From a virus: 64,000 nucleotides of DNA. The notes below the pieces were generated by a model. That model saw only the letters and a program-made list of their open reading frames with translations, ran no database searches and was not told the DNA's origin. The translations under genes were made by a program, and so were the position numbers. The DNA lies in IMG/VR virus record IMGVR_UViG_3300017786_000003, positions 32,001-96,000 of that record. One strand, written 5' to 3'. Shown here piece after piece: positions 31,531-64,000 of this stretch. Positions within the stretch are counted from its first letter, which is position 1. Every line of letters begins with the position of its first letter.

Positions 31531-34500
31531 TTATTTAATAAAGAAGTCACTATTTTTAAGATAGCTATCCCATTTTTGGAATGTATACCAAATAGGAACA
31601 ACATCTTTCCAATTTTTAGCAAGTTTCAGTTCTCCTTTTCTAGGCTTATTTTGATATACATACTCAGAGTTCTCTCTAAATTCTTTATCACTATAATATA
31701 CATAAGCTATTGGAGTTCTAAAAGATAAAGATAAAGCCTCACCCAGTTCTCCTAATGTTCTTGTAGCTGCTATAGGTGACTTAAACATTTGATACTGTTG
31801 TTTTAATCCAGAAGGATGCGGTGTAAATAATACTAATTCTTTATATGTTCTATCTGCTTGATATTTAGCAATATTTTTAAATCTTTTTGTTAGTTCTGAG
31901 TCATCATCATCACCAGCTAACATTACTTGCATTAACTCACTAAGTAAAAATACTGATATCATAATTCCTATTTCACCTGCAGTTCTGTAGAAACCATATA
32001 GTTTGTTCTCTGCTCTCTGATCAATATTACCTCCTTCTCCAGTCCAATCATGATCTTTTAAAAATCCTTCTTTATAAGTATTAAACTGTAGATTACCTGT
32101 TGCTGCTGTTTTTAAAGCATAGTTTATAAACTTCAAAGCGGATATATATCTACCTTCCATCCATCCAAGGTTTTCATCAAAGTATTCTCTTTGATATCTT
32201 GCTCTAAATGCTGGCATAACCCATTTATGAAACTGTGCTGCTAAGTTACCAAGCGTTGTACTTTGAATAACCATTCTATCTTCTTTAGCATAGTTACCAT
32301 GAATTTGTTTATTAACCTCTCTTATTTTATTTCTTAAGTCATATCTATACTCATCAGTATAAGCCACTTCTCTACCACCTTTTTCAACTACAGTATCAAA
32401 TCCTTCTTTAAGTTCATTCTTATGTGTTTTAGGATTATAGGTAAATGCATCATATAAAGAGAGTGTCTCACCTGTTGTACTATTTTTAATTGTAGTATCC
32501 ATCAACATGGCCATACCTACTTTAGTTTGTACATTGTATTCTGCTGCATCCTGAAGAACATATCCCCACTCAGCTGCTTTAGCAAACCAACTTTGGCCTG
32601 TAGTAGTATCTGCTCCCTGTTCACGTATGTCTGTCATTTTATCCATCATCCTAAACATATCTACAAAAGCTTCATATTTACTATTAGCTTTCTCAGGATC
32701 ATAATCAACTTTACCAACACCTTTAGCTGCACCAAAAGTAGCAACATAACCTAAATCTTTCATATAATAACTAGTTCTAGAAACAATATCAGGAATAGCT
32801 CTTTGATTAAAAACTTTTACAGCTCTTAGATATGATGATCTATTAAAGAATCTTTGACCAAGCATTTCTATATTATTGTTCACTCTACCAATAACATAGT
32901 TGTTAAAGTTACCAAACGGGTTAAAGGCAACATAAGTAAGAGAAGAAACTTGAATTAGCTTATCTGCTATTTTATCAAACATTCCTTTGGATATTTTGTG
33001 GTTATCATAAAAGGTCATAGACATCCACTTCTTAGCTCGTCTAACAGCATTTGCTTCTAACTTGTTACTACTTATTTTTTGTCCAACCTTTTTAACAGCA
33101 CCTTCTACCACACTGAAAGATTCTATATCTGTTTCAGGTGAACCATATTCTCTTTGTTCTAGTACCTTTACCATAGAATTTAATGTGTCTTCTACAGTAC
33201 TCATTGTCTCATAGTTTTGAGCCATTGCAATAAACTTTAAAAGACTATCAGTAAGATCTTTACTAATCTGACCTACAGTTGGAGTAGCTCTTAACCTTGC
33301 TATCTTACCATTAAGTTTTTTTAATTCTATATCATACTCACGTGCTCTAATTTTATTTTTCTTTCTTTTACTTTTTAATTCTGTTCTTTCTGCTTCAAGC
33401 TTTTCTAGTTCTCCTTCAACTCTTGCATTACCAGTAAAGTAAATTGGTAAAGTGCTTACCACATTACCAAGCTCATCAGTAGTAACACCCTTTTGCTGAG
33501 ATGTACCTTGAGTAAACATAGAAACATTTTCAACTGTTTCTGCCCACTTTCTAGCTATAAAGTTCTTTTTGCCTTTTACTTCAGCTAACATTTTTTGTTG
33601 AACTACAGGAAGTCTACCAAGCATATTAGTTATATGTCCAGGAGGAAGCTTTTCCAATTGCTGTTTATAAACTGCAGTCCACATCTCATAATATTCTTTT
33701 TGTGCTTGTCCTAGTGCATCTGTAGGATTCATAATCTTAAGATACTCCGGACTTAAAACACTTTCACCATCTATTAGTGCATCATCTTTTATCTCTCTAT
33801 ACTCTGTTTTTGGAAAAGCATTGCTACCCTCATTAAATACTGTAGCACCAGTAGGTTGACCCTTAAAATATACTGGTCTAAGCTTTTCTTCATTAGGCAT
33901 AAAGTACTTAGCTTTATATTGGATGTACTCTGCTTCAGAAACAGTGGCTCTTTTTTTCCACTTTATAAATCCTATCTCAGTATTTACAATTGCATATTCA
34001 TGAATATCTCTAGCATCTTTAAACTCTTGAGTATATCTGTGGATATCACCATCTATTATATTCCCAGCATCATCAACTTGTTCAGCCTTAAAAAAGTTAC
34101 CTAAAGCTGCTTTGTCTTCTGCAAGTTGTTTATTATGTTCTAATTCCTCTGGCTTAGCCTTAAATGTATTAGGTATGTCATAATATAAACGTGGTTTACC
34201 ATCACTATCAAAAGTCTTTTGTCTTAACTCATGTTGTTTATTTTTATAGTTTGGTCCTATCTTTTCTACATATGTACCATCATCCTTAGCCATAAAATTA
34301 TATATCTTCTGAGGATCAGTTTCTGCAGATAACTTAATTAATTTATCAGCAGCTTGAAGTACCATATCTTTTTGAACAGATATTTTATCAAGCATCTTTT
34401 GCATAGCTGCTTTATATATCTTGTCCATTATAGCTAATATTACATCAGGAGATGTTGCCATATCTCTAGTTTGATAGTCCATATCAGTAATGTCAGGAGC

Positions 34501-37251: not shown

Positions 37252-37262
37252 ATCTTAATCTA

Positions 37263-40200
37263 TTAATTTAATCCTAAACATTTTAAATGTTCTTTGAACT
37301 CTTCTTCTGTAAGGTTCACATTAATCTTTCTCATTTCTTCATATTGTTCTATCATAGAGTCTAATGGGAAAAGTTTCTCTTGTTGCAAGATAGGAATATT
37401 ATTTTTGTTTTCTAATAACCTATCATACTCATTTGCTATATCAGGATACTGTTCTTCAACTTCTTCTTCAAACTGAAACTCCATTTGTTCATAAACTATA
37501 TTATCTAAATTACCAGGATCAGATGGAATATACTCTTCTTCCATAGCTTTAAGGACAAGAGCCTCACGTTCATCATTATCCATAACTTCTTGATTATCAA
37601 ATAATTGTTGTTGTATTTCTTGTGTATCAGCAATATTAACAGGTGTAGATTCAGGTCCAGCAGCTTGAACTGTTACAGACCTTTCTGTAGCTTCAACAAT
37701 ACTGCTTTCAGTTTTTATTGCTTCTTCAACTGGATCAAAAGCTATATCTGTTGTTTGAACAGGTGCATCTATTTGATTTTCTTCAGAATAATTCTGAGCA
37801 TTTTTTCTATCTATAAAATTATTATTTTCTGATAGTGTTGGTCTATCTCCAAATATAAATCCAATAGGAGTTTGTTGCTTAGATCCCATAGGTTGAACTC
37901 TTTTATATACAACCTCCTTTTTAGATGCAAGATCACGTGTAAATAAAAAGTAATCTATATTTCCAAATTCATTTATATTACCTAATCTTACAAAAGCAAA
38001 ACTTTTTTCCTGATTTTCTTCTGTATTAAATACTAAATTTCCATCTTTAAATGAGTATCCTTCTGGCAGGCTTCTTCTTTCCTGTGCTGGACCACCTTGA
38101 TATATTGTTTTAACATATTCTTGAGAAGAAGTAGATAACAAATAATTGTCTAATAATGTTTTTTCTAAGTCAGCCTGTGATAAACCAAAAACAGACTCAA
38201 ATGTAGCTTTTCCATTTAAAGCCTTTTGCACATTGTTTACTTGATTCAAATAAGTATTTAAGGTATACGGACTAATTGCTTCTAATAAACTTGCATAACC
38301 TAATTCTAAACCATCCTTAACCATTATGTAATTAATAATAGCTTCAGCAGACTTGCGTGTTTCAATTGTATTATATAACTGAGCAAAGCTGGTTTGTAGA
38401 TCTATTTTTTGTGAAGATGAAAGATTTCTAAATGTATTAGCTTGTGCTAAATTCATTCCTGTTTTATTATTTGAGTTATCTGCAGACAGTAAAAGCACAA
38501 AGTTTTGTAAAAAGAAATTATCTGCTAGACTTTCTCTTTTTTGTAAATCTTGTACAACTGAAATAATAGACTGAACTGATTGTCCATCTATTACTGGTTG
38601 AGGATAAACAAAACTATTAGATAATGTTGCGGCTAGTTGACCATCTGTTTGTAAAGCATTATGTAAATAAGCTTGCAGTGTCAAATAAGATACAATATTC
38701 AATGAGATATCATTTTGTATTTTAGTTATCTCTGGAGTTACTGGTATATCCATCCCATCTAAGAGTTTGGTGTACATACCTACAAAAGGCTTTGTAGAAG
38801 ATATAAAGACTTCAGGAAGTAAAACATCTGTTAGCTGATTAACTATATTTACATATGTACCCCTCCATGTATCATTATATAAATCACTTACGGAAATTAA
38901 TCCCTGGGTTTTAAGTTCTTGAATTGTTCTTTTTAAGTTATTTAGTTCTACTATGCTACTAGGTAATCCTTTAGTAAGGCTTGTTATCGCACCCATTTTA
39001 CTAGTAACTTCAACCAAACCAGAAATCTTAATTAGTTCTTCTAAAGCAGACTTTGTAACATCTTGACTATCCACTAGGTTACCATCAATAAAATCATACA
39101 TCAACTCTTTAGTTAACTTAGTAGATTTTATAGATTTATATTCGTCTGACCTTAATATCTTTTCTGCATAAGTTGTAAGCTTTATTCCTGAATCTACTCT
39201 TGCATTAAAAGCATCTTGAATTACTGGAAGATTAATAAATAAAGTAGCTACTTCTAAAGGTACTCCTAATGCAATCATGTTAGCCATTACACTCATTGCT
39301 GGTTTACTTAAACCAAGTTTAGATATATAACGGTCTTTAGCATTATCTACTGCAATAGATATTAAAGCAGAAAGTGTATCCTGCTTTCTTTGGAGACCAC
39401 CTACTTCAGTTGACTCAGCAAAACTATCATACTTAATACCATCTAATTCAAAGGCTCCATTTACAAGCTTGTTACTTTTGAGCCAGAAGTCCCAATCTAG
39501 TTTCTTTTTACTTTCAGTTAATAAACTCAAATATAAATTAGGTAATACCACTGCACCAATAGATGCACCTTTATTAGATTTAAATGCTTTTGTCTTTCCT
39601 AGTAAATTATCTACATCAACATTATCTTCTTGTAATCTATCACTAAATACCTGAGATTTTCCTGCTAACACATCTAATGTAGTTTTTACAATATTGTCAT
39701 TTGCTGGAGAATAAGCTATAGGTATTCCTGTGCTTGATTCTGTCATACCTCTGTTACCTACTAAAGCATATCTATAATCTAATACTTCATTATTATAAGG
39801 AGCTTCATATGGAAAACCATGATCTTCTTTATATTTTGCGTACTGTGCTTTAGTTACAGGTAAACCTAACATCATTAATGCTTTTCTACTTTCTTCACTA
39901 ACAGGACCATCCGGAATAGTTACTAAATCTACTTCAGCATCACTAAGTTGGTGTTCTGGTTTTACAGCATTATCTTTATATTGCTCTAAAGATTCAGAAT
40001 AAATAGTTCCTGGCTTAGTAACTTTTTCATTTACATAATTAATATATGCATTATACTCTTCAGTTAAAGAAGCCTCTTTACCATATTCTACAAATTGACC
40101 ATCTTTAATATAGTACTCTTTCATCAATGCAAATACTTTATCTATGTCAAAATCAGCACCAGAAGTTTCTATTAGTTCTTGAGCAAACATTGCTGAAGAC

Positions 40201-43200
40201 CCATAATAGACAGGCATAAAGTCTACTAATTTCATATTTACAGAAGAGTGTTTATCCTGAGAAGGTATTCTCACACCAAAAAACTTAGATATAACACTTG
40301 GCATTGATGCATCAACTTTATCTTCTATCATTTCCATAACATCTTTGTCATGTGCTGGCATCATAAACTCAGTATATCTTTGTCCAGTCAAACTTTCTGG
40401 GTCTTTAGGATCAGTATACTCCATTAATCCAGATCTTAATCTGTCTAGAATAACTACACCGTCTTTGCCTGGATCTACACCTAACCAACTCTGTGGTTTA
40501 TTTGAGTCAGTATCATTTGTTGACTCAAATATTTCTGGTTTTGTAGACATAGCTTCCCATTGCTTTTGTCTTATTATTTCTGATCTTAATGGCAAACCGT
40601 TTTCATCAAACTCATACACACGTCTATATACTTTATTACCATAATCAGATACCAGATTTACAGTAACACCAGGAACACGTTCTGCTAATACACCTCTACT
40701 AAAGTATGACATGAATAATGATTCTGCTTTTCTTACAGAAATAGCATTATTTAAATTGTAAGATATACCAGCATCATCAGCAAAAAATTCTAATAGATTA
40801 GATGAAGCTTGAGATGCTTTTAGACCAGCTGTTGCATACCTTAAAAATGCTGCTAACTTTGGAGTAATAACATTATCCTTTTTAGATAAAGTAAACTCAT
40901 CCATTGCAGTTTGAAAATCAAAGACTAAGTTTCTTCTATTCTTATATTTAAATAATACTCTATTAGATAATGCATCACTGTATGCTTTTCTAACATCCGC
41001 AATGGTCATAGTAGTACCATCAGGATTTTTTAATCCTTCAACTTTGACTGAGTCATCTTGTTCAGAAGTAACTAATTCTTTTATCTGAGACATGTCTACT
41101 ATGTCCATTTTATTAGATGGACTTACAACTTGAAGACCCATATATCTTGCATCTAAATCAGTAAACTGTTCAGATTTTAATTCTGTTTCATTATTAAATT
41201 CAGATATATCAACAACATTCCTTTTTTCCATTTTCACAGCAGACACAGGAGCAGCAATAGATATTGTTTGTTCTCTTGCCTCTTGTGCTTCCATCTTAAC
41301 TCTAAGATTATGTAACTCTACTCTGTTAGGTTTTGCAACCCAAACACCTTTATCAGCATTCCAATCAGAAGTATAATCTTTGGTTAGTACAAAAGCAGAC
41401 ATCTTTAGATATGTTTTACCATCTCCATAAACTAATTTCTTAGAATTAATTAATGCTTGTGCTTTAGCTAAACCGGCTTTATTATCATAACCAAAGACTC
41501 TATTTCCAGTTATTGGCTCAAGACCTACATCTAAATGATCAAGCAGTTCAACTTGTTCAGGTTTTAAAAGACCCATACCAAACCATAAATATCTAAACGC
41601 TTTAGTAGTCATATACATTTGAGCATCTGCCTTATCAATTGAAGCGTTAGAGAAAGAAGATACACCTTGTGGCTCAGTAAAGCTTATTAATGATATTTTT
41701 TCTACGCTGTGTAGTACCCCTTGATCAGGTGATGGAAATGCACTATAAGCATTATAATAAGATGCATTTTGCATTTTGGCTCTCTTTATCTTATCAACAG
41801 GATCCTTTAATGATGTTGCTTGATCTCCTAGTAATATCTCATTTATACTGAATGTATTTATATAATCATTAACAAAAATCTGTTTTAGATTATAATCAAA
41901 GTTATCTGTAAGATTTAATAGTTCATTAGATCTTTGCAAATCTGGTGTACTAAATCCTTGAGCTCTTACTAAACCTTGCTTGACCTTCTTAGAAATTAAG
42001 TCTGATGCATTTTCTGATTCTATTACCTCTTTAAACTCTGTAACTTGGTTTTCAAGATTATCAACAACAACCTTTCTTAATGCTGTCATTCCTGCTGCAT
42101 TTTCTAATGCTTGATCAAGAGTTATAGTATTACCTTGTTCACCTTGTAGTTTAGCAATAGATATAAGTTTATTTTTTAGTTCTTCAGATAATAAAACTCC
42201 TGTATTAAAAAATGTATATGCTCTACCACCTTCTGTATTATAACCTCCTACTGTATCTTTGGTTGCAGTATCTGGGTTAAATTCTCTGTTAATCCTTGCA
42301 AACTCATTTCTGATATTATTAACTATAATGTCTACAGCTTCTTCAGTAAGTTTAACTTCATTCCCAACAAGCTCAACAGCTTTAATTACAGGTAAGTCAA
42401 TTTGATCTCCTGTATTAGATGCTTCCATTACTCTAATGAGCACGGATGCAATAGCACGCTCTTGAGTATTACCTTCTTCATCAAGGTATTCTACTGTACT
42501 AACTTTACCACTTTTAGTATTAACGTTTGCAGTATAGTTATTTAATAAAGTTGATAAAAACTGTCTAGGACTAAAGTCACCATAAGTATCAGTACCTAAT
42601 ACATTACCTGAAATATCTTCTCCTGTTATTCTATCTTTTTGTTTAAGACCTGCTACTCTAAGAACTTTTAGTCTATTAGTAAGAGAAAGTTTTAAGAACG
42701 CAGGATCATTTAATAAATAATTATTTTCTAAAGCAGGATCCTCAAGTTTTCTTTGTATGTTATTTGGATCATTAAGTTCTGCTATTGATGTTAAATGATA
42801 TGTACCATTTTGATGTGCATAAACCAAATCACCATTAGCATTTCTAAATACAGAAGCACCTATTGTCTCATCAAACATAGCATTACTTTCTGCCATAGCT
42901 CTAAGTCTACTATTCATGCCCATTTCACCTGTATCAAATATGTCTTGATTTCTTTGAATTTGTCTAGACATTTGCTCTATATCTTCAAGTACCAGTCTTT
43001 GTCCATTAGGATTTAAATTTAATAATGCAATCTGAGATGGTTTCAAAGCATCAGTAGACTTAGCTGCAATAAAATTATATTTTAAATAAAGCGGACTAAA
43101 TCTAATACCTACATACTGATATATTTGTTCAGATAGCTCTTTTGCTTTGTTACTTAATACCTCATCTGTTTCTGTTTCACTATTCAATGATATAGCATCA

Positions 43201-46200
43201 TACAAATCTTGTATTGCATCAACAGCTTGATTTTTTCTTTTCTTATCAGATATAAGTTTTTCTTGTTTATATAAAAACGCTTGTGCCCATCTATCCATTT
43301 GTGAATTAATATCATCACGTTGGGCAGCAGAATAAACTAAGCTATTACCTTGTTGGTCTATCTCAGTAAATATATACTCAACTCTAAAGTTTGAGAAACC
43401 TTTTATAATTTGTTGTAAGAGTAAAGGATCTTTAATTGGCAATGACAATGCTGACCCATCAAGTATTGCTTGTGGATTTATTTCTCCAAAAGTATCTAAT
43501 AATATTCTATCTATTACTGCACCAGAGTTCACATTAGACTGTCCAAATAAATATAAACTTTTTAATATGTCTATAGGAGCAGTAAGATTCTTAACTGATT
43601 TTAAAATACCATTATATGCCTCATTAAAATTAACAGGAACTATTAATGGCTCACCTTCTACCAATATAGTATTACCAAAATAATCTTGTTCTGTTACAGT
43701 AGTAGTTGCTAAGTAAGCTCTTAAGAAACCAGGTATACTATTTATTCCTCCTATGTTTGAAGCATCTGTATCAAATTGTGATGCAGATCTAATACCTGTT
43801 ATATCTGAAAAGTATTCTTCATTATACACAGCATCTACTAATTGACCATTAATGATATTTAAATATTCAAATACTTGTTCTTGAATAACATCTTCAAACC
43901 TATCAAAGGCTAAACTTATTTCTGTTAGTCTTTGTTTTTGTATGTCTGATCTTTCTGCATTAATTGGATTTTCAATATTATATAAATTTCTAAAGTTATC
44001 TAATACCTCATTCATTACTTCTCTAGGACTATATGGTCCTTCTGATGCAGCCTTGCGTTCAGCTTGAATATAATGTGCAGCAATACCATGTATAAGTGGA
44101 TTGGCAATATTGTTACTTAAATACAAGTTTCCTTTTACACCATTTTGAGTAATCTCAGCATATGGTACTAATGCATTTGCCTCAGAAGCAATACCAACTT
44201 GCATATCTGCAGTGAATTGATTTCTAACCAATGATGCTCCTTTAAACTTACCAGCATCTATAGATTCAAATAAACTATCTAAAGAAGCAAGTTCTGTCTT
44301 AGCACCTAACACAGATTTAATCCATTCCATTATTCTATTAAAGAAAGACTTTATAATACTATTAGTCTTTGTACTCTTAGGATTCATTTTAAATTTTTCA
44401 AATTCATCTGCTAAGTACTCTTCGTAATATTCTCTTTCTAATTCTGCTCTAGTCATATTTGCATATGTATCAGCAGAGTTCTTAAATTTCTGAAGTTCAA
44501 TTTCTAAACTCTTTCCTTCAGATCTAAGTTTTGCTCTCACTTCTTTTTTAGCTATACCAATATACTGGTTTATTTGCTCATCAGTTAACAACATTCTAAA
44601 CACACCGTGAAAAGCCTCATGATATTTAAATGGAGAATTTGCTCCTGTGTATATTGTACCATTAATCTTTAGTTCACCTGCAATCTCCTTAAGCACCATT
44701 ACAAAAGCACCTACTCTAACCCCTCCTGCTTTCAGGTTATTACCTAAAGTCTCTATATCAGCTGTAGTTATAAAATCAGGTAATGCTCCTTCTGCCCATG
44801 TAGTAAAAGTATTTATATCTTCAATATCTTCTGGTTTGAGTTCTGAAGTATCTCTTACAACTTTATTAGCACCTTTATCTAATTTTTTTCTAAGCTTTAA
44901 AAGGTTTTGGTATTTCTTACTTTCTCTTAGGACTTTACCTTTTTCTTTAAAAGGCACGCCTTGTGTAAGTTCTTCTTTTAATTTATCTAGTTCAATTATT
45001 ACATCTGATAAAGATGCTACTTCATTAGTTGGATTTTCTATTTCAGAAGTATCTATTCCTTGTTTCTGTTTAGAATTAACTAATAAAGTTATTTCAGTAA
45101 TCCTAGCTGATTCAAGTTCAGTTTCTCTTTCCGTAAGTTCTTCTCCAGCAACTCTTTTCTGTACTATCTTATTTATATATTCAACAGGTACTGATGCAAA
45201 TCCTTCATCTTTATAATCAGCAAAGTCTTGATCAGAAATTTCTTCTAGTTCTACAAAAACAGTGCTTGATGCTGGAGCCCGTGGTACTGATACATCTTGT
45301 TCTGGTGCATCTTCTGTTTGTGTATTAACACTATTAATAACTTTAGTTAATTGTAATGCTTGTAAAACACTTTGACTACTTGCATTCAGTAAAAGCTTCT
45401 GTGGCACAATTACATTATTAGCCACAGGTGTTGTTGTATTATTTATAATAGTATTTACATCTGTATTCCTAGGCAAGTGTTCTCTAAAGTTTTTACTACC
45501 TAATACAACAGTTTTTCCTTTGAATTTTATTTCTTTATTAACTTCATCATTATTAAACTTTTCTATTAAGTTACTTAGTTTCTTTGCAGGAGTAAGACCC
45601 TCTTCAACTTTATTTACTTCATCTTTATCTAATTCATAAAATGTTCTTTCTTTAGTAAGCTTATTATATTTTAATAACTGAACTTTACCAAACTTATCTA
45701 CTTTTAATTCTAAATCATATCCTTGAGCAAAACTAATAAATAAAGAATTCTCTAAATCTATATTGAATTGTTTTGGATATTTATTATTTTTTTGTACCTC
45801 TTGAGCTTTTGTTATTAAGCTTATTGCTAAATCATTCATTTGCTGAGGAGTATAAGATCTAGCCTTTAAAGGAACTAATACATAGGTACCATTAGGTAAA
45901 AGAACTGCAGCTCTATATCTATCACTATTTTGTCTAATACCTGAAGAATTACCTTTGCTTTGTTCAACCATCTCTGACCATTGTCCAGACTTTTCTAATC
46001 CTGCTTTAACTTCTTCTCTTAGTTTTTTCTGTTCTGCAAGAGTCTTTTTATTTGTTACTGGTACAACAGTCCCTGCTTGTATATCATAGATTATTAACCC
46101 ACCGGAGTTATCAGAAGTGTTATACTGTAGAGTATCAAATGAGTTGAGTATACCTTTCTGCATATCTAGTTTAACACCTTGCAAACTAAAACTCATACCA

Positions 46201-49200
46201 TAAGGTAACTGCTTTGCATTAAGAGTAAATACATCCCCCTCAAAGGTTCTATCTATAAATTCTGTCAATAAAGAATTGATACCAAATACTTGCGTAAAGT
46301 ATTTAACTATTTCTTCCTTTGGTACCCCTTTAAAGTCACTTAAATCTACCAGATTAAATAACTGATCATAAGTAAGATTAACTTGATCAGGTAATGCTAC
46401 ACCTTTAGTATCTGTATATATATTTCTATTATTTGGTAAATATGCAAAAATACCATCTGCCTGATCGCTTGGTTTAATCCCTGCTCCTTCTAAAACACTA
46501 TTAATTTTTTCTTTTGTAGTTTGAAAATCTTCTGGACTTGAACCAATAAAGCGTAGACCTATTGTATATTTTTCTCTTACTTGTTTAATACTTGAGTTAG
46601 CTTCTTTCCCTGGGATAACAAAGTTGTTTCTTTTTTTACCTGCATCTTCATTAAGTTTAATTACAAGCTCTAAACTATTTATTTGCTCAGGTGTCAATAC
46701 AGAAAGGATCAACTTCAGTCTTTGCTTTCCTGTAGCATAATCTGCGTTATCTCTTTCATCTATATTAATATGTGGATAAAAGCCTAATAAATCTTCTACC
46801 GTTAGTCTACTAACATCAGTTGTATATTTAGTTAGGTCTAAAGGTTTTTGTAAAAACTTTCTTTCTATATTTTCTGCTAATACTTCTTCTGTTTCATCTA
46901 TCTTATTTTTAGGTGCTACAATGATTGAACCAACTCTAACTGCTTTAGGAGTACTCAATACTATATATTCTACACCTGTAATTTTATCAAATAATGATGA
47001 ACCTTGATTAACTGTAAACCCACCAATTGAATATGATGTAGAATCAGGTGCAGCATCCTCTAGTTGTTCAAACACTTTTCTTGCTGCAGCCTTAGTCTTG
47101 TATGTAGATTCTGGATTATTATTTTCAGGGTCTACTAAAGATCTAAGAGTAGAGCTAATAGGATTACCTTTTTTATCTGTAACCATATAAAACGCACCAA
47201 CATCTGGATCAGTTACTTTAACAACATTTACAGTAGAGCCAGATATTAAAATCTCTGTATTAGCTTTACCTGCTACTTGTTCACCTGGTTCATTATATTC
47301 TATACCAGTATCAAAAATATCATTATAAGATAAATTAGATATAGCTAATACTTGTCCTACTAAATCATTCTCACGCCCATCTCTACTATTTAGCCATTCC
47401 TGTAATCCTACTTCTGATTGTATATCTTCTGGAGATGCATTTGTTTCATCAGCCCAAATCTTTTTTATAGCATTAAAGGTGTTTTTATAATTTAATCCTT
47501 CTTCTGTGTTTCTCCATTCTTGGAAACCAATCTTTGATTTCTTACTACCTTGTTTCATAGAAGCTAGCATCTCTGCTTCATATTTTTTATATTGTGTCAT
47601 TAATAATTCATCCAACATAGGAGAATTATTTTCATTTTCAACAATAACTTCTACTCCACTTTTGTCTAATACTTCATCTTGTTTTGTTTTATTTTCATCT
47701 GCTACTTTTGCAGCCTGCTTTTCTTCTTGAGTTTCAGCCTTAGTAGATTGTGTTTCTGTTTGTTTTCTATAAGCTTTTAGTTTTTCTTGTATTAGATTCC
47801 ATGTTACTTCATCTTGTAATGGTGTTACAGATCCATCAGCATTATAAAAAGTTTTAAGTACATCAACAACTCCTGTCTGTAAGAATACTTTTGTCTGGTT
47901 TATATCAGCATAGATACCTAAAGCTGCTAACTGGTTTAATAACTCATTAGCTTTGACAACACCTACATAATTTTCAATAACACTCTTAAAGTTCTTTTGT
48001 ATATTTCTGTATGCTTGCTTATTAAACTCAAATGTTCTATCAACAATTTCCTGAAATTTAGTTGGATCCTGTAAATATTCAATAGCCTTATAGTATGTCT
48101 TTGCAGAACCTTTTAAAGCCATATAATCTACCATCATCTTAAGAGCATTTTCTACTTTGGCTTCATTTATAAAACCGTCAGAAGATTCACTAGCCATAAA
48201 TCTCATATAATTAAAAAACTCTTTTCTTAGTTTCTCTATTTTACGTCTATCAAAAGCACCCTTTCTGCCACCTTTAGTACTAGTAGCATTTTTCGGGTCA
48301 GTTACAATCTTATAGATAGCTTGTAACCTTTTCATTCTTTCATTCTTAGATTTTATTTCTGCTCTTGCTGCTGAGGTAGCACCAATAGGAACACCTTTGT
48401 TATCTCTTTGAAGGTTGCCATTTTCATCTTGCTTTATATCACTATTGTTTATTTCAGCAAGCAACAAGTTAATTTCTTTTTGAATGCTTGCAGGATCTAA
48501 TAATACGGTAATATCTTTTGCTGCCATATTTTGAAACAGAGGCTCTTGAGACAAGTTACTAAATATGGAGTCAGCTCTTTTTAATGCTGCACTAAAACTA
48601 TCTTGTGTAAATAAATATAAATACCTTGCATGCTCATATCCCATGTAGGCTAATGTTTCTTTTATATACTCTCTACTACCTGGTTTAAATGATTTTGGAT
48701 CATGCGGGTTTTGATATCTGTCCTTTGCTTCATTATAAAAATCTTGTGTCTCACCAATTTGATTAATCATTTTTTGCAACCTGTGTCTGAGCTTCCCGTT
48801 TTTTATATCTTTTTTAGTTGATGGAAAAGCTTCTGCAAGTTCTTCATCAGAAAGATTCATAAAATCTTTAAGTTGTTCTTGAAAATAGAAAGAACTTTGG
48901 TTATTCATTATAGTATAAATCTGCTGAAACTTAGCATAGTCTTGTTTATTTTTAAAATTAAACATGTCATCTTGAAACATGTCCTCCTTCATTCCATCTT
49001 TTATTTGCTTTTGTATTAAGAAGTTAAACTTAGTTGGATCAAACATTGAGTTAGGATCATTTATTTGATTGTTCCATGCTGTATTATGCACCTCAACCAA
49101 CTTACTAATCATATCTTCTTCTGCTTGTTTTAGATCTTTGTATGCTTGAGGATCATTAATTCTTTGATATATAGCAGGTACACCTTGGAAAAATAATTTT

Positions 49201-50960
49201 TGTGGTCCTTGTACTACTCCACCCATTAAGAATCCAGACATAAAAACATCAAACCCTTCTTCTGAAAATTGTGAGCCTATAGCAGAGTTGACCATTTCTT
49301 TTTGTAGCTCAAATCCTCCTGCCATTGGATCTCTAGTTACAGCAGTAAAGTACCCTGTAGTTGCAGCAGATATTGCTTCTTGTGTAACCTCTTGAATACC
49401 TTCAGAAATATTAGCAGCAAAATATCTTAGTGTAGCACCTGCAGCCATTCCTGCATTACCTTTTATACCACCTGCTTTTACTTTATTTAACCAACCTGAA
49501 AAACCTTTACCAGCATCACTAAATGGACTTTCATTAAAACCTCCTGATTTTTTTCTAGTTGGTTTACTTTTAATTAACCTTCTTCCTATTCCTCTATATG
49601 AATCATTAAACATTCTGCCAATAGATCTATTAAATCCACCCAGTGCATTGCCTAATACAAATTTGTTACTTAAGTATATAACAGGAACATTAGCTAATGT
49701 AGTTGCAAATGCACCTTTAGCTGCTTTTTCAGATATAGAGGCCATATCACCTTCTTGGATTTCTCCAAAGTTTTGTGCAGCTGTTATACTAGAAAGTTCA
49801 TTAATTAATTTATTGTAAACCATTCCGCCTTCTAGCTTACCTTCTGCAAGAGCGTAGTTTAGAGCTCTTATGTCTCTATAGAATCCTCCAAATAATGAAG
49901 ATCCTTTTCCCATATTAAATACATTTTGGGTTCCGTTCTTTGCTGTTTTAAGTTTACGTATAGCATACATAGTTTCTGGAGCTATAAAATCTAAAAACAT
50001 ATTTGTTCCTCTCCCTAATCCTTGAGTACCATAATATACATCTTTTGCATTACCAACGTTATTAAGGCTTTTCATCATGTTTCTAGTGCCTTTAAATAAC
50101 TTAGTACCGGTAAACACATTACCAATCTTTCTTAAAATATTTGCTTGACCTATTGCCCAAGCTCCTGCTGCTGGTATAGCACCAACACCAGTTGAAGCAG
50201 CCGCTGCAGCACCTAACGTTAAAGCTAGTTCTTCAACAGCAATAGACCCAATTATACCAAATGTATAACCACTGTTTAATAATAAGTTATTAGTCCATGC
50301 TAATGCACCGTCTCTAGTAGAATTACCAATAGCCATAGCATCTTCAAATTCTCTAGCAGATTCTACATCTGCACCAGAAAAGTCTCCTGTAAATATATCT
50401 CCCATAGATCTATATACACTTTTAAAACCTGCTCCTACAAGACTACCAAATTGACCTCTCATTCTAGCCATGTCATCCCATACAGTAGAATTAGCATTAT
50501 ATGATGCTTCTATATTTGAATAAGGAGTATAACCAATATCTGCAAACTTAGGGTGCTCATAATATCTCATAAAGTTTCCTGCTCTTATACCAGAGTAAGT
50601 AGAATCTACTCTGTTCTGTCCAGGACCTGCATCATATGCTGGAGTGCTGTCAATTCGGTCAATCCATCTTTGTGCAGGGTTTTGCTGTTTAACAGGGTCA
50701 TATGTATCTGTAGCTAATGTGGGATCTGGATTTGCCATATTACCATAAGCATTTATAGCATACTTATTAATAGATGGTGCATATGCATCAAGTTGCTGTA
50801 CAGCAGCTATGTTAGCAGTATTAACAAATTGATCAGTTTCAGGTGTTTCAAATAGTTTATCTACAGGAACAAACATAAATTGACTAGGAGGTATTACACT
50901 ACCCTGCCTTTGATTATTCTGTATAGTAGTTTCAAGAGTTGGATTATTTTTCTTTTCCAT
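37263..50960 (-). CDS. Virion-packaged DNA-dependent RNA polymerase (crAss-type, single polypeptide)
   Basis: 4565 aa. RIPSQ...SGADFDIDK two-barrel catalytic DxDxD variant (about 40137-40160), DKIKR, DAQMY and VDNAKD. Zincin motif HEAFH...EEYLAD at about 44410-44620. Confidence 0.9.
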   Translation of the reverse strand: MEKKNNPTLETTIQNNQRQGSVIPPSQFMFVPVDKLFETPETDQFVNTANIAAVQQLDAYAPSINKYAINAYGNMANPDPTLATDTYDPVKQQNPAQRWIDRIDSTPAYDAGPGQNRVDSTYSGIRAGNFMRYYEHPKFADIGYTPYSNIEASYNANSTVWDDMARMRGQFGSLVGAGFKSVYRSMGDIFTGDFSGADVESAREFEDAMAIGNSTRDGALAWTNNLLLNSGYTFGIIGSIAVEELALTLGAAAAASTGVGAIPAAGAWAIGQANILRKIGNVFTGTKLFKGTRNMMKSLNNVGNAKDVYYGTQGLGRGTNMFLDFIAPETMYAIRKLKTAKNGTQNVFNMGKGSSLFGGFYRDIRALNYALAEGKLEGGMVYNKLINELSSITAAQNFGEIQEGDMASISEKAAKGAFATTLANVPVIYLSNKFVLGNALGGFNRSIGRMFNDSYRGIGRRLIKSKPTRKKSGGFNESPFSDAGKGFSGWLNKVKAGGIKGNAGMAAGATLRYFAANISEGIQEVTQEAISAATTGYFTAVTRDPMAGGFELQKEMVNSAIGSQFSEEGFDVFMSGFLMGGVVQGPQKLFFQGVPAIYQRINDPQAYKDLKQAEEDMISKLVEVHNTAWNNQINDPNSMFDPTKFNFLIQKQIKDGMKEDMFQDDMFNFKNKQDYAKFQQIYTIMNNQSSFYFQEQLKDFMNLSDEELAEAFPSTKKDIKNGKLRHRLQKMINQIGETQDFYNEAKDRYQNPHDPKSFKPGSREYIKETLAYMGYEHARYLYLFTQDSFSAALKRADSIFSNLSQEPLFQNMAAKDITVLLDPASIQKEINLLLAEINNSDIKQDENGNLQRDNKGVPIGATSAARAEIKSKNERMKRLQAIYKIVTDPKNATSTKGGRKGAFDRRKIEKLRKEFFNYMRFMASESSDGFINEAKVENALKMMVDYMALKGSAKTYYKAIEYLQDPTKFQEIVDRTFEFNKQAYRNIQKNFKSVIENYVGVVKANELLNQLAALGIYADINQTKVFLQTGVVDVLKTFYNADGSVTPLQDEVTWNLIQEKLKAYRKQTETQSTKAETQEEKQAAKVADENKTKQDEVLDKSGVEVIVENENNSPMLDELLMTQYKKYEAEMLASMKQGSKKSKIGFQEWRNTEEGLNYKNTFNAIKKIWADETNASPEDIQSEVGLQEWLNSRDGRENDLVGQVLAISNLSYNDIFDTGIEYNEPGEQVAGKANTEILISGSTVNVVKVTDPDVGAFYMVTDKKGNPISSTLRSLVDPENNNPESTYKTKAAARKVFEQLEDAAPDSTSYSIGGFTVNQGSSLFDKITGVEYIVLSTPKAVRVGSIIVAPKNKIDETEEVLAENIERKFLQKPLDLTKYTTDVSRLTVEDLLGFYPHINIDERDNADYATGKQRLKLILSVLTPEQINSLELVIKLNEDAGKKRNNFVIPGKEANSSIKQVREKYTIGLRFIGSSPEDFQTTKEKINSVLEGAGIKPSDQADGIFAYLPNNRNIYTDTKGVALPDQVNLTYDQLFNLVDLSDFKGVPKEEIVKYFTQVFGINSLLTEFIDRTFEGDVFTLNAKQLPYGMSFSLQGVKLDMQKGILNSFDTLQYNTSDNSGGLIIYDIQAGTVVPVTNKKTLAEQKKLREEVKAGLEKSGQWSEMVEQSKGNSSGIRQNSDRYRAAVLLPNGTYVLVPLKARSYTPQQMNDLAISLITKAQEVQKNNKYPKQFNIDLENSLFISFAQGYDLELKVDKFGKVQLLKYNKLTKERTFYELDKDEVNKVEEGLTPAKKLSNLIEKFNNDEVNKEIKFKGKTVVLGSKNFREHLPRNTDVNTIINNTTTPVANNVIVPQKLLLNASSQSVLQALQLTKVINSVNTQTEDAPEQDVSVPRAPASSTVFVELEEISDQDFADYKDEGFASVPVEYINKIVQKRVAGEELTERETELESARITEITLLVNSKQKQGIDTSEIENPTNEVASLSDVIIELDKLKEELTQGVPFKEKGKVLRESKKYQNLLKLRKKLDKGANKVVRDTSELKPEDIEDINTFTTWAEGALPDFITTADIETLGNNLKAGGVRVGAFVMVLKEIAGELKINGTIYTGANSPFKYHEAFHGVFRMLLTDEQINQYIGIAKKEVRAKLRSEGKSLEIELQKFKNSADTYANMTRAELEREYYEEYLADEFEKFKMNPKSTKTNSIIKSFFNRIMEWIKSVLGAKTELASLDSLFESIDAGKFKGASLVRNQFTADMQVGIASEANALVPYAEITQNGVKGNLYLSNNIANPLIHGIAAHYIQAERKAASEGPYSPREVMNEVLDNFRNLYNIENPINAERSDIQKQRLTEISLAFDRFEDVIQEQVFEYLNIINGQLVDAVYNEEYFSDITGIRSASQFDTDASNIGGINSIPGFLRAYLATTTVTEQDYFGNTILVEGEPLIVPVNFNEAYNGILKSVKNLTAPIDILKSLYLFGQSNVNSGAVIDRILLDTFGEINPQAILDGSALSLPIKDPLLLQQIIKGFSNFRVEYIFTEIDQQGNSLVYSAAQRDDINSQMDRWAQAFLYKQEKLISDKKRKNQAVDAIQDLYDAISLNSETETDEVLSNKAKELSEQIYQYVGIRFSPLYLKYNFIAAKSTDALKPSQIALLNLNPNGQRLVLEDIEQMSRQIQRNQDIFDTGEMGMNSRLRAMAESNAMFDETIGASVFRNANGDLVYAHQNGTYHLTSIAELNDPNNIQRKLEDPALENNYLLNDPAFLKLSLTNRLKVLRVAGLKQKDRITGEDISGNVLGTDTYGDFSPRQFLSTLLNNYTANVNTKSGKVSTVEYLDEEGNTQERAIASVLIRVMEASNTGDQIDLPVIKAVELVGNEVKLTEEAVDIIVNNIRNEFARINREFNPDTATKDTVGGYNTEGGRAYTFFNTGVLLSEELKNKLISIAKLQGEQGNTITLDQALENAAGMTALRKVVVDNLENQVTEFKEVIESENASDLISKKVKQGLVRAQGFSTPDLQRSNELLNLTDNFDYNLKQIFVNDYINTFSINEILLGDQATSLKDPVDKIKRAKMQNASYYNAYSAFPSPDQGVLHSVEKISLISFTEPQGVSSFSNASIDKADAQMYMTTKAFRYLWFGMGLLKPEQVELLDHLDVGLEPITGNRVFGYDNKAGLAKAQALINSKKLVYGDGKTYLKMSAFVLTKDYTSDWNADKGVWVAKPNRVELHNLRVKMEAQEAREQTISIAAPVSAVKMEKRNVVDISEFNNETELKSEQFTDLDARYMGLQVVSPSNKMDIVDMSQIKELVTSEQDDSVKVEGLKNPDGTTMTIADVRKAYSDALSNRVLFKYKNRRNLVFDFQTAMDEFTLSKKDNVITPKLAAFLRYATAGLKASQASSNLLEFFADDAGISYNLNNAISVRKAESLFMSYFSRGVLAERVPGVTVNLVSDYGNKVYRRVYEFDENGLPLRSEIIRQKQWEAMSTKPEIFESTNDTDSNKPQSWLGVDPGKDGVVILDRLRSGLMEYTDPKDPESLTGQRYTEFMMPAHDKDVMEMIEDKVDASMPSVISKFFGVRIPSQDKHSSVNMKLVDFMPVYYGSSAMFAQELIETSGADFDIDKVFALMKEYYIKDGQFVEYGKEASLTEEYNAYINYVNEKVTKPGTIYSESLEQYKDNAVKPEHQLSDAEVDLVTIPDGPVSEESRKALMMLGLPVTKAQYAKYKEDHGFPYEAPYNNEVLDYRYALVGNRGMTESSTGIPIAYSPANDNIVKTTLDVLAGKSQVFSDRLQEDNVDVDNLLGKTKAFKSNKGASIGAVVLPNLYLSLLTESKKKLDWDFWLKSNKLVNGAFELDGIKYDSFAESTEVGGLQRKQDTLSALISIAVDNAKDRYISKLGLSKPAMSVMANMIALGVPLEVATLFINLPVIQDAFNARVDSGIKLTTYAEKILRSDEYKSIKSTKLTKELMYDFIDGNLVDSQDVTKSALEELIKISGLVEVTSKMGAITSLTKGLPSSIVELNNLKRTIQELKTQGLISVSDLYNDTWRGTYVNIVNQLTDVLLPEVFISSTKPFVGMYTKLLDGMDIPVTPEITKIQNDISLNIVSYLTLQAYLHNALQTDGQLAATLSNSFVYPQPVIDGQSVQSIISVVQDLQKRESLADNFFLQNFVLLLSADNSNNKTGMNLAQANTFRNLSSSQKIDLQTSFAQLYNTIETRKSAEAIINYIMVKDGLELGYASLLEAISPYTLNTYLNQVNNVQKALNGKATFESVFGLSQADLEKTLLDNYLLSTSSQEYVKTIYQGGPAQERRSLPEGYSFKDGNLVFNTEENQEKSFAFVRLGNINEFGNIDYFLFTRDLASKKEVVYKRVQPMGSKQQTPIGFIFGDRPTLSENNNFIDRKNAQNYSEENQIDAPVQTTDIAFDPVEEAIKTESSIVEATERSVTVQAAGPESTPVNIADTQEIQQQLFDNQEVMDNDEREALVLKAMEEEYIPSDPGNLDNIVYEQMEFQFEEEVEEQYPDIANEYDRLLENKNNIPILQQEKLFPLDSMIEQYEEMRKINVNLTEEEFKEHLKCLGLN

Positions 50961-60689: not shown

Positions 60690-60700
60690 TAATATACAAA
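60690..60700 (-). promoter_or_regulatory. Putative promoter element TTTGTATATTA
   Basis: Exact copy of the 24993/25067 motif, 19 nt upstream of ATG 60670. Confidence 0.55.
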
Positions 60701-60730
60701 TAATTAGGGAGAATCACTAATCTTTTAGGT

Positions 60731-63508
60731 TTAAGAATTGCCTGCAACATAAGTCATAATGTAATTAGCAGGACTCATATTCATAGCTTTAGCATCTCTA
60801 TAATAAACTCTATTAAGTTTATCATATACTTTTTGACCAATTATTTCTTCTTGTTTTGTTTTGAAATTACCATTTATATAATGTTTATAAATAGCATGTG
60901 GATTACTCATACTTCCACCATCTTGACCTTTAGGTAATGTTTTAATTTTACCGTTCTCAGTTCTAGCATATCTGTTCTTTTCATTTTCCATGCTAGGAAT
61001 AAGTGTGCCTGAATAAGTTTTACCTTTCCATTGCCAGCTAACTGATCCACCTTTTTTATATTCAGGTCCTTTTACATTTCCATCTTTATCTTTAAAGTAT
61101 ACGTTTTCTGAAAGACCTTCTGTTTCTCCTTGTTTAGTTCTTACATACCCGTCTGGCAAAAGATTGTTATATGAAAGGTATTTTATAACCTCATCTTTTT
61201 TAGAATCATCTATATTTAATGATCCAACAATTGATCCAACATAATTATTAAATGTGTCTTCTCCCATTTCTAGAAGCTTTGCTAAGAATGGTCTTTCATC
61301 TCCGCCAAATATAGTTCTTAACTCATGTCCTACACCTAATAGATTTGAACCTATAAAACCAGCTGCTTTGTCTACACCAACAGAATCTAATAGTCCACCA
61401 ACATAAGGTATATCTTTAACTTTTTGTTGTATTGCTTCTGCTGCATATCTACCTCCTGCAGCATGTCTCATATTATCAATACTATTTTCTTCACCAGGAT
61501 TCTCAGCAAAAGCTTGAGCTCTATCATTTACATTATCTAAAGATGCATTAATTAATTTTTCTAGATCAGAAAGAAAACTGGTTTTAGGATTTGACCTCTG
61601 AATTGCATTTACATCACCACCTTCTTGAAAACCTAATTTGTCTTTCCAGTAATTTGGTATATTTTTAATACCTTCCATAGAGATGTCTATATTAGGAACA
61701 TCTATACCTAATTTTTCAATTGCAAATCTATTTGCTTTATCTTTAGCCATATCTAAAAGCTCAGGTGCCCACTTATCTCTTTCATAAATTACTGTTTTTA
61801 ATGCAGCTGGTATTGTTCCATCTGGAAGGATATTATATATCTCTTTTGCATCAGAACCTACCTGACGTAATCTTTTTGCTGCTTTATCCTGTCTGCGTTC
61901 ACTGGGCTCATCACCAAAAGGAAGGAAGCCAGATATAACTGTATCAAGATCTTTTAATGTTTGATCTGTTATGTCACCAATACCCTTATCTTTTATTGCT
62001 TCTATTGCTGTAGGATTATGTAATACTGTTTCTACTACATCATTTATTTCATCTCTATCTAAACCATCTAAATAATTTGTAAGAAGATTAATAGTAGTAG
62101 CATTAAGATCTACTTTTGCTTCTTCTTTTACTAATTTTGTTAACCCCTCAAATCTACTTGTCCTTTTTCCTTTTACACTTCCTGGAACTATTTTATCACT
62201 ATAATTTTCTAAAATATTATCCATAACAAAATTAGGATCAGTAATACCCCCTCTACTATTTTCTGGTGAATTAGGATCCATACCTAAAGCCAAACATACC
62301 CCAGTAGCACAATTAGAATCTAAAAAGTCATAATTATATATGCTTTCATCCTCCAATGATATAGGAAGTTTTTCTGGTCTCAATCTTACATCATCATGAA
62401 TAGAACTTCTTTCAGTACCTTCAAATAATTGTGCTTGATTTATAAAACCTTTTATTTCATCATCAGATAAATCTAAATCTAAAACTCTTACGTCATCTTT
62501 CCCTTTATAATCTCTTTCACTAACACGTTTATTTCCTGAACCAGTTGACCATCTATTTACACGGCCAACTAACTTAGTACCAGGTATTACATTTACTTGA
62601 TCACCTGTATCAGTATTAATTAGTACAGCTTCAATATGTCCAGGACTAAACTTTTTACTTCCATAAGGATATTGTATAACTCTTACATTATATTTTGAAT
62701 AATCTATATCATTAATTCCTTTAGATCTTTCTGGGTCACCACCGTCTTGTAACTGACTTGCTTTGGAACCTTTGTTTATTGTTTTAGCTGCCAACTTAGC
62801 CTGGAGAGGAGTTACACCTTTAATTGCTTTGAGGGGTTTAGCAAAAGGTATTATACTTAATGCATTTAGTGCTGCGTTACTATAATCACCACTATCTAAA
62901 CTATCAGCTGATTTATACGCAGCATTAATTGGATTAAAAAAATCTATTGCACTTGTAAAAGAATCTTTTTCAACTTGTCCAGCATCTATACCCTTATCAA
63001 AATTATATGGTACATTTCCAGTATTAAATTTTTCTTTAATAGTTGCAAAAGGATATCTAACAAATGATCTTATGTCACTTTTAAAATTATCAAGCATGCT
63101 AGGTGCTTGTGTTATTGTACCTCCTTGTTGAAATTGTTCTGGTTGTTCTAACTCAGGTTGCATTCTATAGTTAGTAGTAAGTTCTTCTCCTTCTTTTAAA
63201 TCTTTCAATGCATATACAAATCTTTGATCACCTACCTTTTTACTCATCATAGTTGGTGATTCTTCATTATGATTATGCATCTTACCTAACTGAGTAACAG
63301 GTTGTCCACCTTTATGTGCTAAACCTATTAGCTCACCCTGTTTAAAAGATCTTCCTGCAAACATACCATCTCCTTCTATATCAGAAGGGGCTTGAAATAT
63401 ATCACTCATAGGTGCATTAGAACTAAACACACCAGTTACATAGGTAAACATTTCATTAGGTCCACCAGGTAATCCTCGTCTTTCTTTCTCTTCAAAATAT
63501 TCTTTCAT
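60731..63508 (-). CDS. Multidomain cargo protein: SET + permuted papain-like + DUF6973-like + Tudor-like
   Basis: 925 aa with domains separated by FQQGG, LQDGG, FQEGG, YKKGG and GQDGG (see findings). Confidence 0.7.
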   Translation of the reverse strand: MKEYFEEKERRGLPGGPNEMFTYVTGVFSSNAPMSDIFQAPSDIEGDGMFAGRSFKQGELIGLAHKGGQPVTQLGKMHNHNEESPTMMSKKVGDQRFVYALKDLKEGEELTTNYRMQPELEQPEQFQQGGTITQAPSMLDNFKSDIRSFVRYPFATIKEKFNTGNVPYNFDKGIDAGQVEKDSFTSAIDFFNPINAAYKSADSLDSGDYSNAALNALSIIPFAKPLKAIKGVTPLQAKLAAKTINKGSKASQLQDGGDPERSKGINDIDYSKYNVRVIQYPYGSKKFSPGHIEAVLINTDTGDQVNVIPGTKLVGRVNRWSTGSGNKRVSERDYKGKDDVRVLDLDLSDDEIKGFINQAQLFEGTERSSIHDDVRLRPEKLPISLEDESIYNYDFLDSNCATGVCLALGMDPNSPENSRGGITDPNFVMDNILENYSDKIVPGSVKGKRTSRFEGLTKLVKEEAKVDLNATTINLLTNYLDGLDRDEINDVVETVLHNPTAIEAIKDKGIGDITDQTLKDLDTVISGFLPFGDEPSERRQDKAAKRLRQVGSDAKEIYNILPDGTIPAALKTVIYERDKWAPELLDMAKDKANRFAIEKLGIDVPNIDISMEGIKNIPNYWKDKLGFQEGGDVNAIQRSNPKTSFLSDLEKLINASLDNVNDRAQAFAENPGEENSIDNMRHAAGGRYAAEAIQQKVKDIPYVGGLLDSVGVDKAAGFIGSNLLGVGHELRTIFGGDERPFLAKLLEMGEDTFNNYVGSIVGSLNIDDSKKDEVIKYLSYNNLLPDGYVRTKQGETEGLSENVYFKDKDGNVKGPEYKKGGSVSWQWKGKTYSGTLIPSMENEKNRYARTENGKIKTLPKGQDGGSMSNPHAIYKHYINGNFKTKQEEIIGQKVYDKLNRVYYRDAKAMNMSPANYIMTYVAGNS

Positions 63509-63999
63509 TAGCGTTTAGATAATAATAGTTTAGTATTGTTTAATCTTAGTAACATTTTTCTATCTCCTGATCTATTTTTTCTTAATATTAATTGGTTAGA
63601 ATAATGTCTAAATTTTTTGCGTTGTGTAGGAGACTTATCATAATTAAGATTAAGTGCATTTAAAGGTCTAATATAACCATTACACTGTGTATTAAATATA
63701 GGTTGTTCAACATTAGTAAATTCACCTCTATCATTTGTTATATCAAAAAATTGATTAAATCTAAATTTATGTTCTACTTTAGATGATAGTATGTCTATGC
63801 TACTATTATTTATTATTGGATAATTTAATTCACCCCACGGATCATTGTAAGGTTGCATATTTAGATTTAATAATCCAGATACTTGATCATTATTATAAAC
63901 TATAGCATGATCAAAATTAAATTCTAAATCTTCCCACTTATCTTCTCCACAAGCGTTACCAAGTGTATTATTTTTATAGACGTATGTTTCAAGTTGATA
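63508..63999 (-). CDS. C-terminal part of tail stabilisation (muzzle-type) protein, truncated by window edge
   Basis: Frame is open to the window end (...FNFDHAIVYNNDQVSGLLNL...FRFNQFFD...KKFRH) and TAATG-coupled to the 925-aa gene. Position precedes the cargo genes. Confidence 0.55.
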   Translation of the reverse strand, partial: YQLETYVYKNNTLGNACGEDKWEDLEFNFDHAIVYNNDQVSGLLNLNMQPYNDPWGELNYPIINNSSIDILSSKVEHKFRFNQFFDITNDRGEFTNVEQPIFNTQCNGYIRPLNALNLNYDKSPTQRKKFRHYSNQLILRKNRSGDRKMLLRLNNTKLLLSKR

Positions 64000-64000
64000 T

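Follow-up and report, generated by a model that had tools for sequence, protein, structure and literature searches.

A reduced SET-domain module at the head of a putative cargo protein of a crAss-like phage

Introduction

Can a bacteriophage carry a protein lysine methyltransferase in its virion? The question is raised by a gene for a protein of 925 amino acids on bases 32001-96000 of the IMG/VR virus record IMGVR_UViG_3300017786_000003, a record of 107,860 bp that is 94% complete and has a G+C content of 32%. This whole stretch of 64,000 nucleotides is called the window here, and positions are counted from its first base. An earlier note, made from the letters of the window, had described a minimal SET-domain lysine methyltransferase at the N-terminus of a phage cargo protein, and had proposed a profile search against the Pfam SET family and a structure prediction as checks. 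The motifs it quoted are present on the minus strand, and its span 63165-63400 corresponds to residues 37-115 of the 925-residue protein (G46-D-G48-M-F-A, H78-N79-H80 and G-E-E-L-T-T-N-Y114). Our analysis points to a SET module that appears reduced to a cofactor-binding and catalytic core. Preceded by a leader, this module opens the cargo block's first protein. The coordinates of the features are collected in Table 1.

Profile and predicted fold of the module

The Pfam SET profile PF00856, whose curated gathering cut-off is 22.4 bits, matched residues 1-136 with 29.5 bits (E 1.1e-6) and the whole protein with 23.6 bits; a scan of the phage's own genome gave 29.9 bits including neighbouring matches. 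The match is confined to profile positions 63-104 of 105, the C-terminal half. HMMER alignments with MLL1 and with vSET, the SET protein of a chlorovirus, bring the GxG turn, the N-H of NHSxxPN and E-L-T-x-x-Y into register. The canonical N-H-S-D-E-P-N is found in the modules of some relatives.

For structure prediction, an alignment of nine modules (the window and eight viral contigs) served as input to AlphaFold2. The model of the 94-residue module (residues 37-130) reached a mean predicted local distance difference test (pLDDT) score of 83.5 and a predicted template modelling (pTM) score of 0.73, with disorder limited to the last 12 residues. Every match listed by Foldseek against the PDB was a SET domain or a SET-related PR domain, with chlorovirus vSET (3kma) on top. 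VIA-align superposed 76 residues of the model on vSET 3kma with Z 11.4, a root-mean-square deviation (rmsd) of 1.6 A and 26% identity. The Z score was 11.7 for EZH2, 11.0-11.2 for MLL1 and up to 11.1 for SMYD2. Over these four proteins, Z ranged from 11.0 to 11.7 and rmsd from 1.1 to 2.1 A on 70-80 residues, and 205 chains had a Z of at least 8. Both checks proposed in the earlier note thus bear out the SET identity, the profile by a score above the cut-off and the predicted fold by matching SET structures alone. From profile and model together, it is nearly certain that residues 37-130 form a genuine SET fold.

Conservation and spread of the family

A profile of the module, searched against 1.84 billion representative proteins, matched 948 clusters at E <= 1e-3, 304 at 1e-10 and 117 at 1e-30. 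From 224 proteins, 182 distinct modules were taken. S42, I44, G48, G62, H65, N79, H80, E109, T111, Y114 and P118 are invariant over all of them. The first glycine of motif I (G46) is conserved to 84% and the second is invariant, and the tail Q-P-E-L-E-Q-P-E-D-F is conserved to 92-100%. Many surface positions of the module are free to vary. In the closest relatives the SET module is the best-kept segment of the protein, with 96-98% identity versus 88-95% for the segment that follows. This pattern of sequence conservation would be expected of an enzyme under purifying selection.

The family is nearly restricted to uncultured phages. When the whole 925-residue protein was compared by tblastn with 50,697 phage records there was no match; the module alone gave a single match, in cyanophage P-RSM6 (E 0.6). 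Among 185,579 bacterial and archaeal species genomes there was one match, on a 4.4-kb contig of a metagenome-assembled genome which also bears the end of a gene for a muzzle-like virion protein (see below); this lone match most likely represents binned phage DNA. In PHROGs the module corresponds to two unnamed families.

In some metagenome relatives (P0031-P0033, P0093, P0094) two SET modules stand in tandem. The second copy is divergent and ends in D-Y-D-M-V-P-I-E-G-L-Q-D-S-S-S-F-x-D-G-G, not in the acidic Q-P-E-L-E-Q-P-E-D-F tail. The Pfam SET match of P0032 reaches 51.6 bits, and its best-matching stretch lies in the second copy.

How far the module is reduced

From the strand that follows GxG to the NH motif, HMMER alignment gives 12 residues in the module versus 33 in vSET (vSET 31-63); compared with MLL1, the same region has 11 residues versus 45. 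The module is therefore 21 residues shorter than vSET between motifs II and III, and the earlier description of a domain of about 80 residues with almost no insert holds. The phage core from S42 to Y114 counts 73 residues, or 85 if the tail is included up to F126. The whole module consists of a core of about 78 residues and a conserved acidic tail of 16.

In SET enzymes the SET-I insert forms one wall of the peptide groove, and cofactor binding relies on GxG, NH, the tyrosine of motif IV and an aromatic residue in the C-flanking region. Judged by its motifs, the cofactor side of the module looks complete and the substrate side incomplete. The free-standing vSET, with 119 residues, has been termed the smallest histone methyltransferase (PMC7019647).

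Position of the gene and cargo status of the protein

The portal protein of the phage matches, at 23-33% identity, portal proteins of Crassvirales (IAS virus, PhiCrAssBcn, crAss-like gut phages) as well as those of the Cellulophaga phages phi4:1 and phi17:2, Flavobacterium phage FpV4 and Leptolyngbya phage Lbo-JY46. The strand of the SET gene also carries, in one series with it, the genes for the terminase, the portal and the major head protein, as assigned with PHROGs. By these sequence matches the source of the window is a distant crAss-like phage.

The gene directly upstream encodes a protein of 2118 residues that is homologous to gp042 of phage phi4:1, a virion protein by tandem mass spectrometry (MS/MS). 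It shows a weak collinear match (E 9e-4) to gp44, the muzzle protein of phage crAss001, and is called muzzle-like here. The ATG of the 925-residue open reading frame (ORF) at 63508 overlaps the stop codon of this upstream gene as TAATG. Genes for proteins of 2118, 925, 1035, 1053, 1119, 4565 and 1906 residues follow one another, collinear with crAss001 gp44-gp50 and with phi4:1 gp042-gp038. The 4565-residue protein matches crAss001 gp50 (8e-13) and gp47 (1e-5), the 1906-residue protein matches gp49 (6e-32), and the 1035-residue neighbour of the SET protein matches gp45 with an E of 0.02 only. PHROGs returned no family for the 4565-residue protein or for the remaining cargo proteins. All of crAss001 gp45, gp46, gp47, gp49 and gp50 were detected in virions and have been termed cargo proteins (PMC10172136). 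In phi4:1, all four genes that follow gp042 encode virion proteins verified by MS/MS.

The link between the SET gene and the muzzle-like gene extends to other phages, the latter lying directly upstream in 8 of 9 SET-bearing loci, from 7 different contigs. The block is also nearly devoid of cysteine: the proteins of 925, 1035, 1053, 1119, 4565 and 1906 residues contain 2, 2, 0, 0, 1 and 1 cysteines, and the muzzle-like protein has 32 in 2118 residues. A nearly cysteine-free block fits proteins that are threaded out unfolded. On the basis of synteny and position, it is fairly probable that the 925-residue protein is virion cargo.

A cassette that replaces the usual first module

Relatives of the locus come from 268 viral contigs that encode a close homologue of the muzzle-like protein (42-65% identity); the 80 best were taken, 78 of them with enough sequence downstream. 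The leader G-L-P-G-G-P-N opens the next gene in 61 of the 78, ahead of proteins that otherwise differ, and it is 80-95% identical among proteins unrelated further downstream. In most of the 61, it is followed by a different first module with the pattern E-G-Y-K...S-P-D...N-N-P...D-N-L-G-N...F-P-G-D. This default module was not found elsewhere in the genome of the phage, where the sole match is the leader of the SET gene itself. The SET module has thus replaced the default module here. In other phages it is located after the default module.

The default module was also considered as a decayed SET domain and rejected, with an hhalign probability of 0.2%.

The leader, in the form (R/I)-G-L-P-G-G-P-N-E after the muzzle-like gene (loci L015-L093), could be a signal by which the first cargo protein is packaged or docked.

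Placement of the module varies. Of 209 matches, 103 start within the first 15 residues of the protein, 62 come after a short leader and 44 are internal, and some proteins hold two copies. G-G occurs within a few residues after the module in 156 of the 198 modules that have downstream sequence. It also precedes 32 of the 44 internal modules by 14 residues or fewer, and the module often begins directly after it. Relatives that are 96-98% identical in the SET module gain or lose entire downstream segments exactly at the x-x-GG borders of the 925-residue protein. Apart from the module itself, the proteins that carry it are unrelated; their partner domains are ART-PolyVal, LysM with SLT, Amidase_2, or phage lysozyme with a peptidoglycan-binding domain (Phage_lysozyme+PG_binding). 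The module is a cassette, usually bounded by x-x-GG, at the head of mosaic proteins.

Adenovirus protease, African swine fever virus pS273R, the coronavirus papain-like protease PLpro and the proteases of ubiquitin-like proteins all cleave after G-G. The x-x-GG motif may accordingly be read as a protease site, or it may be an exchange junction. By analogy with these proteases, we infer a possible cleavage of the 925-residue protein at G130.

In the cargo-block proteins encoded at 54399-63508 (minus strand), segments are delimited by a hydrophobic residue, Q/K/R, any residue, G and G. The phi4:1 protein gp040 (L013:22737-25424), a virion protein verified by mass spectrometry, carries F-Q-A-G-G, Y-Q-N-G-G, F-Q-I-G-G and F-Q-S-G-G.

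Lysine-rich small proteins of the phage

The earlier note had named the lysine-rich small proteins encoded at 21.4-24.7 kb, beside host proteins, as candidate substrates. These proteins are real and basic, with 18-29% Lys and 21-33% Lys+Arg; examples, encoded on the minus strand at 21747-22022, 22028-22441 and 24174-24479, have 91 residues (29% Lys), 137 residues (19%) and 101 residues (22%). A homologue of the 137-residue protein occurs in three of four complete relatives that have no SET module (E 1.8e-7 to 6.3e-5), and none was detected in the SET-bearing relative G005, although proteins of such low complexity are easily missed. The SET module and the 137-residue protein are uncoupled, and a dedicated pair of enzyme and substrate gets no support. 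This part of the earlier proposal was thus not upheld by co-occurrence. Because there is no coupling with the 137-residue protein, a host target is the more economical guess, and our guess is that the target is a host protein.

The run of very basic small proteins extends over 21435-24965 on the minus strand. Several carry K-Q-K-G-G, Q-E-G-G, Y-K-K-G-G or M-Q-K-G-G, motifs like those of the cargo. The lysine-rich proteins may be internal DNA-condensing proteins or processed virion proteins.

Proposed role of the module and alternatives

We propose that the 925-residue protein is packed into the virion and, most likely, ejected into the host ahead of or together with the DNA. The module, possibly released by a cut after Q-Q-G-G130, would then use S-adenosylmethionine (SAM) of the host to methylate lysines of what is probably a host protein. 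It would be an accessory weapon rather than a structural part, a rare cassette in the place of the usual first module. From its conserved motifs, catalytic activity of the module is somewhat probable. The full chain, an active lysine methyltransferase delivered by the virion to a probable host target, draws on sequence and model and can be believed or doubted with about equal reason. More tentative is a bolder version, which we would not yet favour. In it, the module, with a core of about 80-90 residues and no SET-I, would be the smallest natural SET enzyme and would exit a crAss-like virion before any other module. The conserved acidic tail, or else the substrate itself, would complete the peptide groove. 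By methylating a nucleoid, RNA polymerase, ribosomal or defence protein of the host, the enzyme would subvert or disarm the cell, as the first protein lysine methyltransferase known to be delivered by a phage and a bacterial-virus counterpart of chlorovirus vSET.

Several observations weigh against an active, virion-delivered enzyme. The module has the sequence motifs and the fold of SET domains, but SET-I, a structural element of canonical SET enzymes, is missing together with the adjoining strands. Either substrates are bound in another way, then, or the module may be no enzyme. The position of the motif II tyrosine (YxG) seems to be occupied by L-A-H, with an invariant histidine (G-L-A-H65), in an uncertain register; vSET likewise is without this tyrosine. 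The conserved tail ends at F126, a candidate for the C-flanking aromatic residue, and is disordered in the monomer model. Distribution adds to the doubt. A SET module lies within the next 4 kb after the muzzle-like gene in 3 of the 78 relatives, six-frame searches found none in four complete relatives (CheckV 100%), and the module occurs in 0 of 50,697 records of cultured or deposited phages. As regards delivery, BLASTP and phmmer gave no match at E<=1 between the 925-residue protein and crAss001 gp45 or gp46. What the earlier note called a phage cargo protein is thus supported by the position of its gene between the muzzle-like gene and the homologues of gp47, gp49 and gp50, and not by sequence similarity to gp45 or gp46.

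The missing wall of the groove also argues for a SET fold that is kept without catalysis, as a binding or docking domain similar to many PR/SET-like domains, which would grip a host protein or a virion partner. Such a domain would suit the slot of the default first module, which looks non-enzymatic, and the most strongly conserved stretch of the module, the acidic tail, has no counterpart among canonical SET motifs. However, a pure binding domain would not require the cofactor and catalytic residues that stay invariant in 182 modules while their surroundings vary, and the default module is unrelated to SET by the hhalign comparison. We regard loss of catalysis as not very likely.

An active methyltransferase might instead modify the phage's own proteins before or during assembly, either the lysine-rich small proteins or lysine-rich cargo segments, which would tune DNA condensation or shield them from proteases. 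SAM is found only in the cytoplasm, that of the assembling cell included; some of the several late-region proteins with 18-29% Lys share x-x-GG motifs, and the segment that follows SET is rich in lysine in many relatives. The module, however, is swapped between proteins whose adjoining segments are unrelated, and the distribution of the 137-residue homologue described above, a weak test in view of its low complexity, speaks against the pairing as well. Own substrates are therefore unlikely. It is more improbable still that the protein is not packaged at all and is a late cytoplasmic or lysis-associated enzyme, encoded by chance in a structural operon, whose SET module acts late. Packaging is read from synteny, significant similarity to gp45 or gp46 is lacking, and the peptidoglycan hydrolase domains of homologues could also aid lysis. 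Yet the genes at the corresponding positions of phi4:1 and crAss001 all yielded virion peptides (PMC10172136), and the SET gene is translationally coupled to the muzzle-like gene, shares its conserved leader with genes for unrelated proteins and belongs to the nearly cysteine-free block. Among the readings, we thus prefer that of a packaged SET enzyme with a host target.

Relation to known systems

The nearest known counterpart is vSET (A612L) of chlorovirus PBCV-1 (PDB 1N3J / 3KMA), likewise a minimal SET protein encoded by a virus, with the same GxG, NH and E-x-T-x-x-Y motifs. It is packaged in the PBCV-1 virion and acts early on host proteins (PMC7019647), and thereby provides a precedent for a virion-borne SET domain. 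vSET is a free-standing protein of 119 residues from a eukaryotic virus and methylates Lys27 of histone H3. The phage module, unlike vSET, has a different, acidic C-terminal tail and is one cassette of a 925-residue mosaic, and the hosts of the phage have no histone H3.

In its architecture the protein resembles the polyvalent proteins of phages and conjugative elements, large proteins of the virion context in which unrelated enzymatic domains are joined in series, to be delivered to the host (Iyer, Burroughs, Anand, de Souza, Aravind 2017; PMC5512222). Relatives of the 925-residue protein bear ART-PolyVal, a domain proper to the polyvalent family, and cell-wall hydrolase domains, and the protein itself combines SET with a permuted papain-like domain. 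The terms 'SET domain', 'lysine methyl' and 'protein methyl' are absent from the text of PMC5512222. The crAss001 proteins gp45 (C1) and gp46 (C2) occupy the same slot, after the muzzle and before the virion RNA polymerase genes, have a similar size range and are expected to be ejected partly unfolded; the 925-residue protein differs from them in sequence (PMC10172136). In that text 'methyltransferase' does not occur, and 'SET domain' occurs solely within immunoglobulin 'C2-set domains'. The one paper that contains both 'SET domain' and 'crAss-like' was set aside, since it refers to immunoglobulin C2-set domains. T4 Alt follows the same logic, as a protein-modifying enzyme that travels in the virion and, once injected, modifies proteins of the host as infection begins (PMC5512222). 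It differs in its reaction, ADP-ribosylation, in its ADP-ribosyltransferase (ART) fold and in that its activity and targets have been demonstrated experimentally, whereas the phage SET module is known from sequence. We found no description in the open literature of a phage protein-lysine methyltransferase as virion cargo.

ADP-ribosyltransferases, RNA polymerases and anti-restriction proteins are known to be injected by phages. An active module would bring lysine methylation into this chemistry of earliest infection, in a crAss-like lineage whose cargo proteins remain largely unexplained. It would also lower the minimum size of a working SET enzyme and show that the fold manages without SET-I, with a bearing on substrate recognition and protein engineering. 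Because the cassette defines a large family of 948 clusters, hundreds of environmental phage genes would gain an annotation from a single biochemical result.

Other features of the locus

Table 1. Features of the SET locus in the window (strand in brackets; residues refer to the 925-residue protein)
Feature	Position	Strand	Basis or remarks
925-residue mosaic cargo-block protein	60731..63508	(-)	ORF list; leader, SET module and five more segments delimited by x-x-GG
N-terminal leader, residues 1-36	63401..63508	(-)	motif R-G-L-P-G-G-P-N-E-M-F-T-Y-V-T-G-V-F
SET core, residues 37-114	63167..63400	(-)	Pfam SET above cut-off; AlphaFold2 pLDDT 85-96 in the core
Motif I, G46-D47-G48, predicted cofactor-binding turn	63365..63373	(-)	aligned with G-x-G of vSET and MLL1
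Motif III, H78-N79-H80, N-H of canonical NHSxxPN	63269..63277	(-)	aligned with NHS of MLL1 and vSET
Motif IV, E109-L-T-T-N-Y114, position of the catalytic tyrosine	63167..63184	(-)	aligned with ELTYDY (MLL1) and EITISY (vSET)
Acidic tail R-M-Q-P-E-L-E-Q-P-E-Q-F126, then Q-Q-G-G130	63119..63166	(-)	conserved over 182 modules; model pLDDT <50
Third segment, residues 258-631, predicted permuted papain-like domain with invariant His and Cys	61616..62737	(-)	alignment and fold matches
3' end of the gene for the 2118-residue muzzle-like virion protein, extending past the window	63508..64000	(-)	homologue of phi4:1 gp042
Genes for the 4565- and 1906-residue proteins, ending the cargo block	31531..50960	(-)	homologues of crAss001 virion RNA polymerase-associated proteins

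No tRNA genes were found in the 64-kb window. The third segment of the 925-residue protein (residues 258-631) was compared with known structures and gave YiiX (Z 7.8), 3kw0 (Z 7.5), TseH (Z 7.2) and MARTX RID (Z 7.2) over model residues 12-191, the next match having a Z of 5.2. TseH, a T6SS effector, is a cell-wall hydrolase. The histidine precedes the cysteine in the segment, and both are invariant in 11 homologues. The segment may act as a cell-wall hydrolase, as a protease or as an acyltransferase. As a general or obligatory protease that cuts the GG motifs in cis it was rejected, since it is missing from the near relatives P0003-P0005, which retain SET and the GG motifs, and so cannot be the general processing enzyme.

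At the far end of the block, the 4565-residue protein (37263-50960, minus strand) has its gp50 match at residues 3528-3719 and its gp47 match at residues 2054-2242. These matches suggest that two virion RNA polymerase-associated proteins are fused in it.

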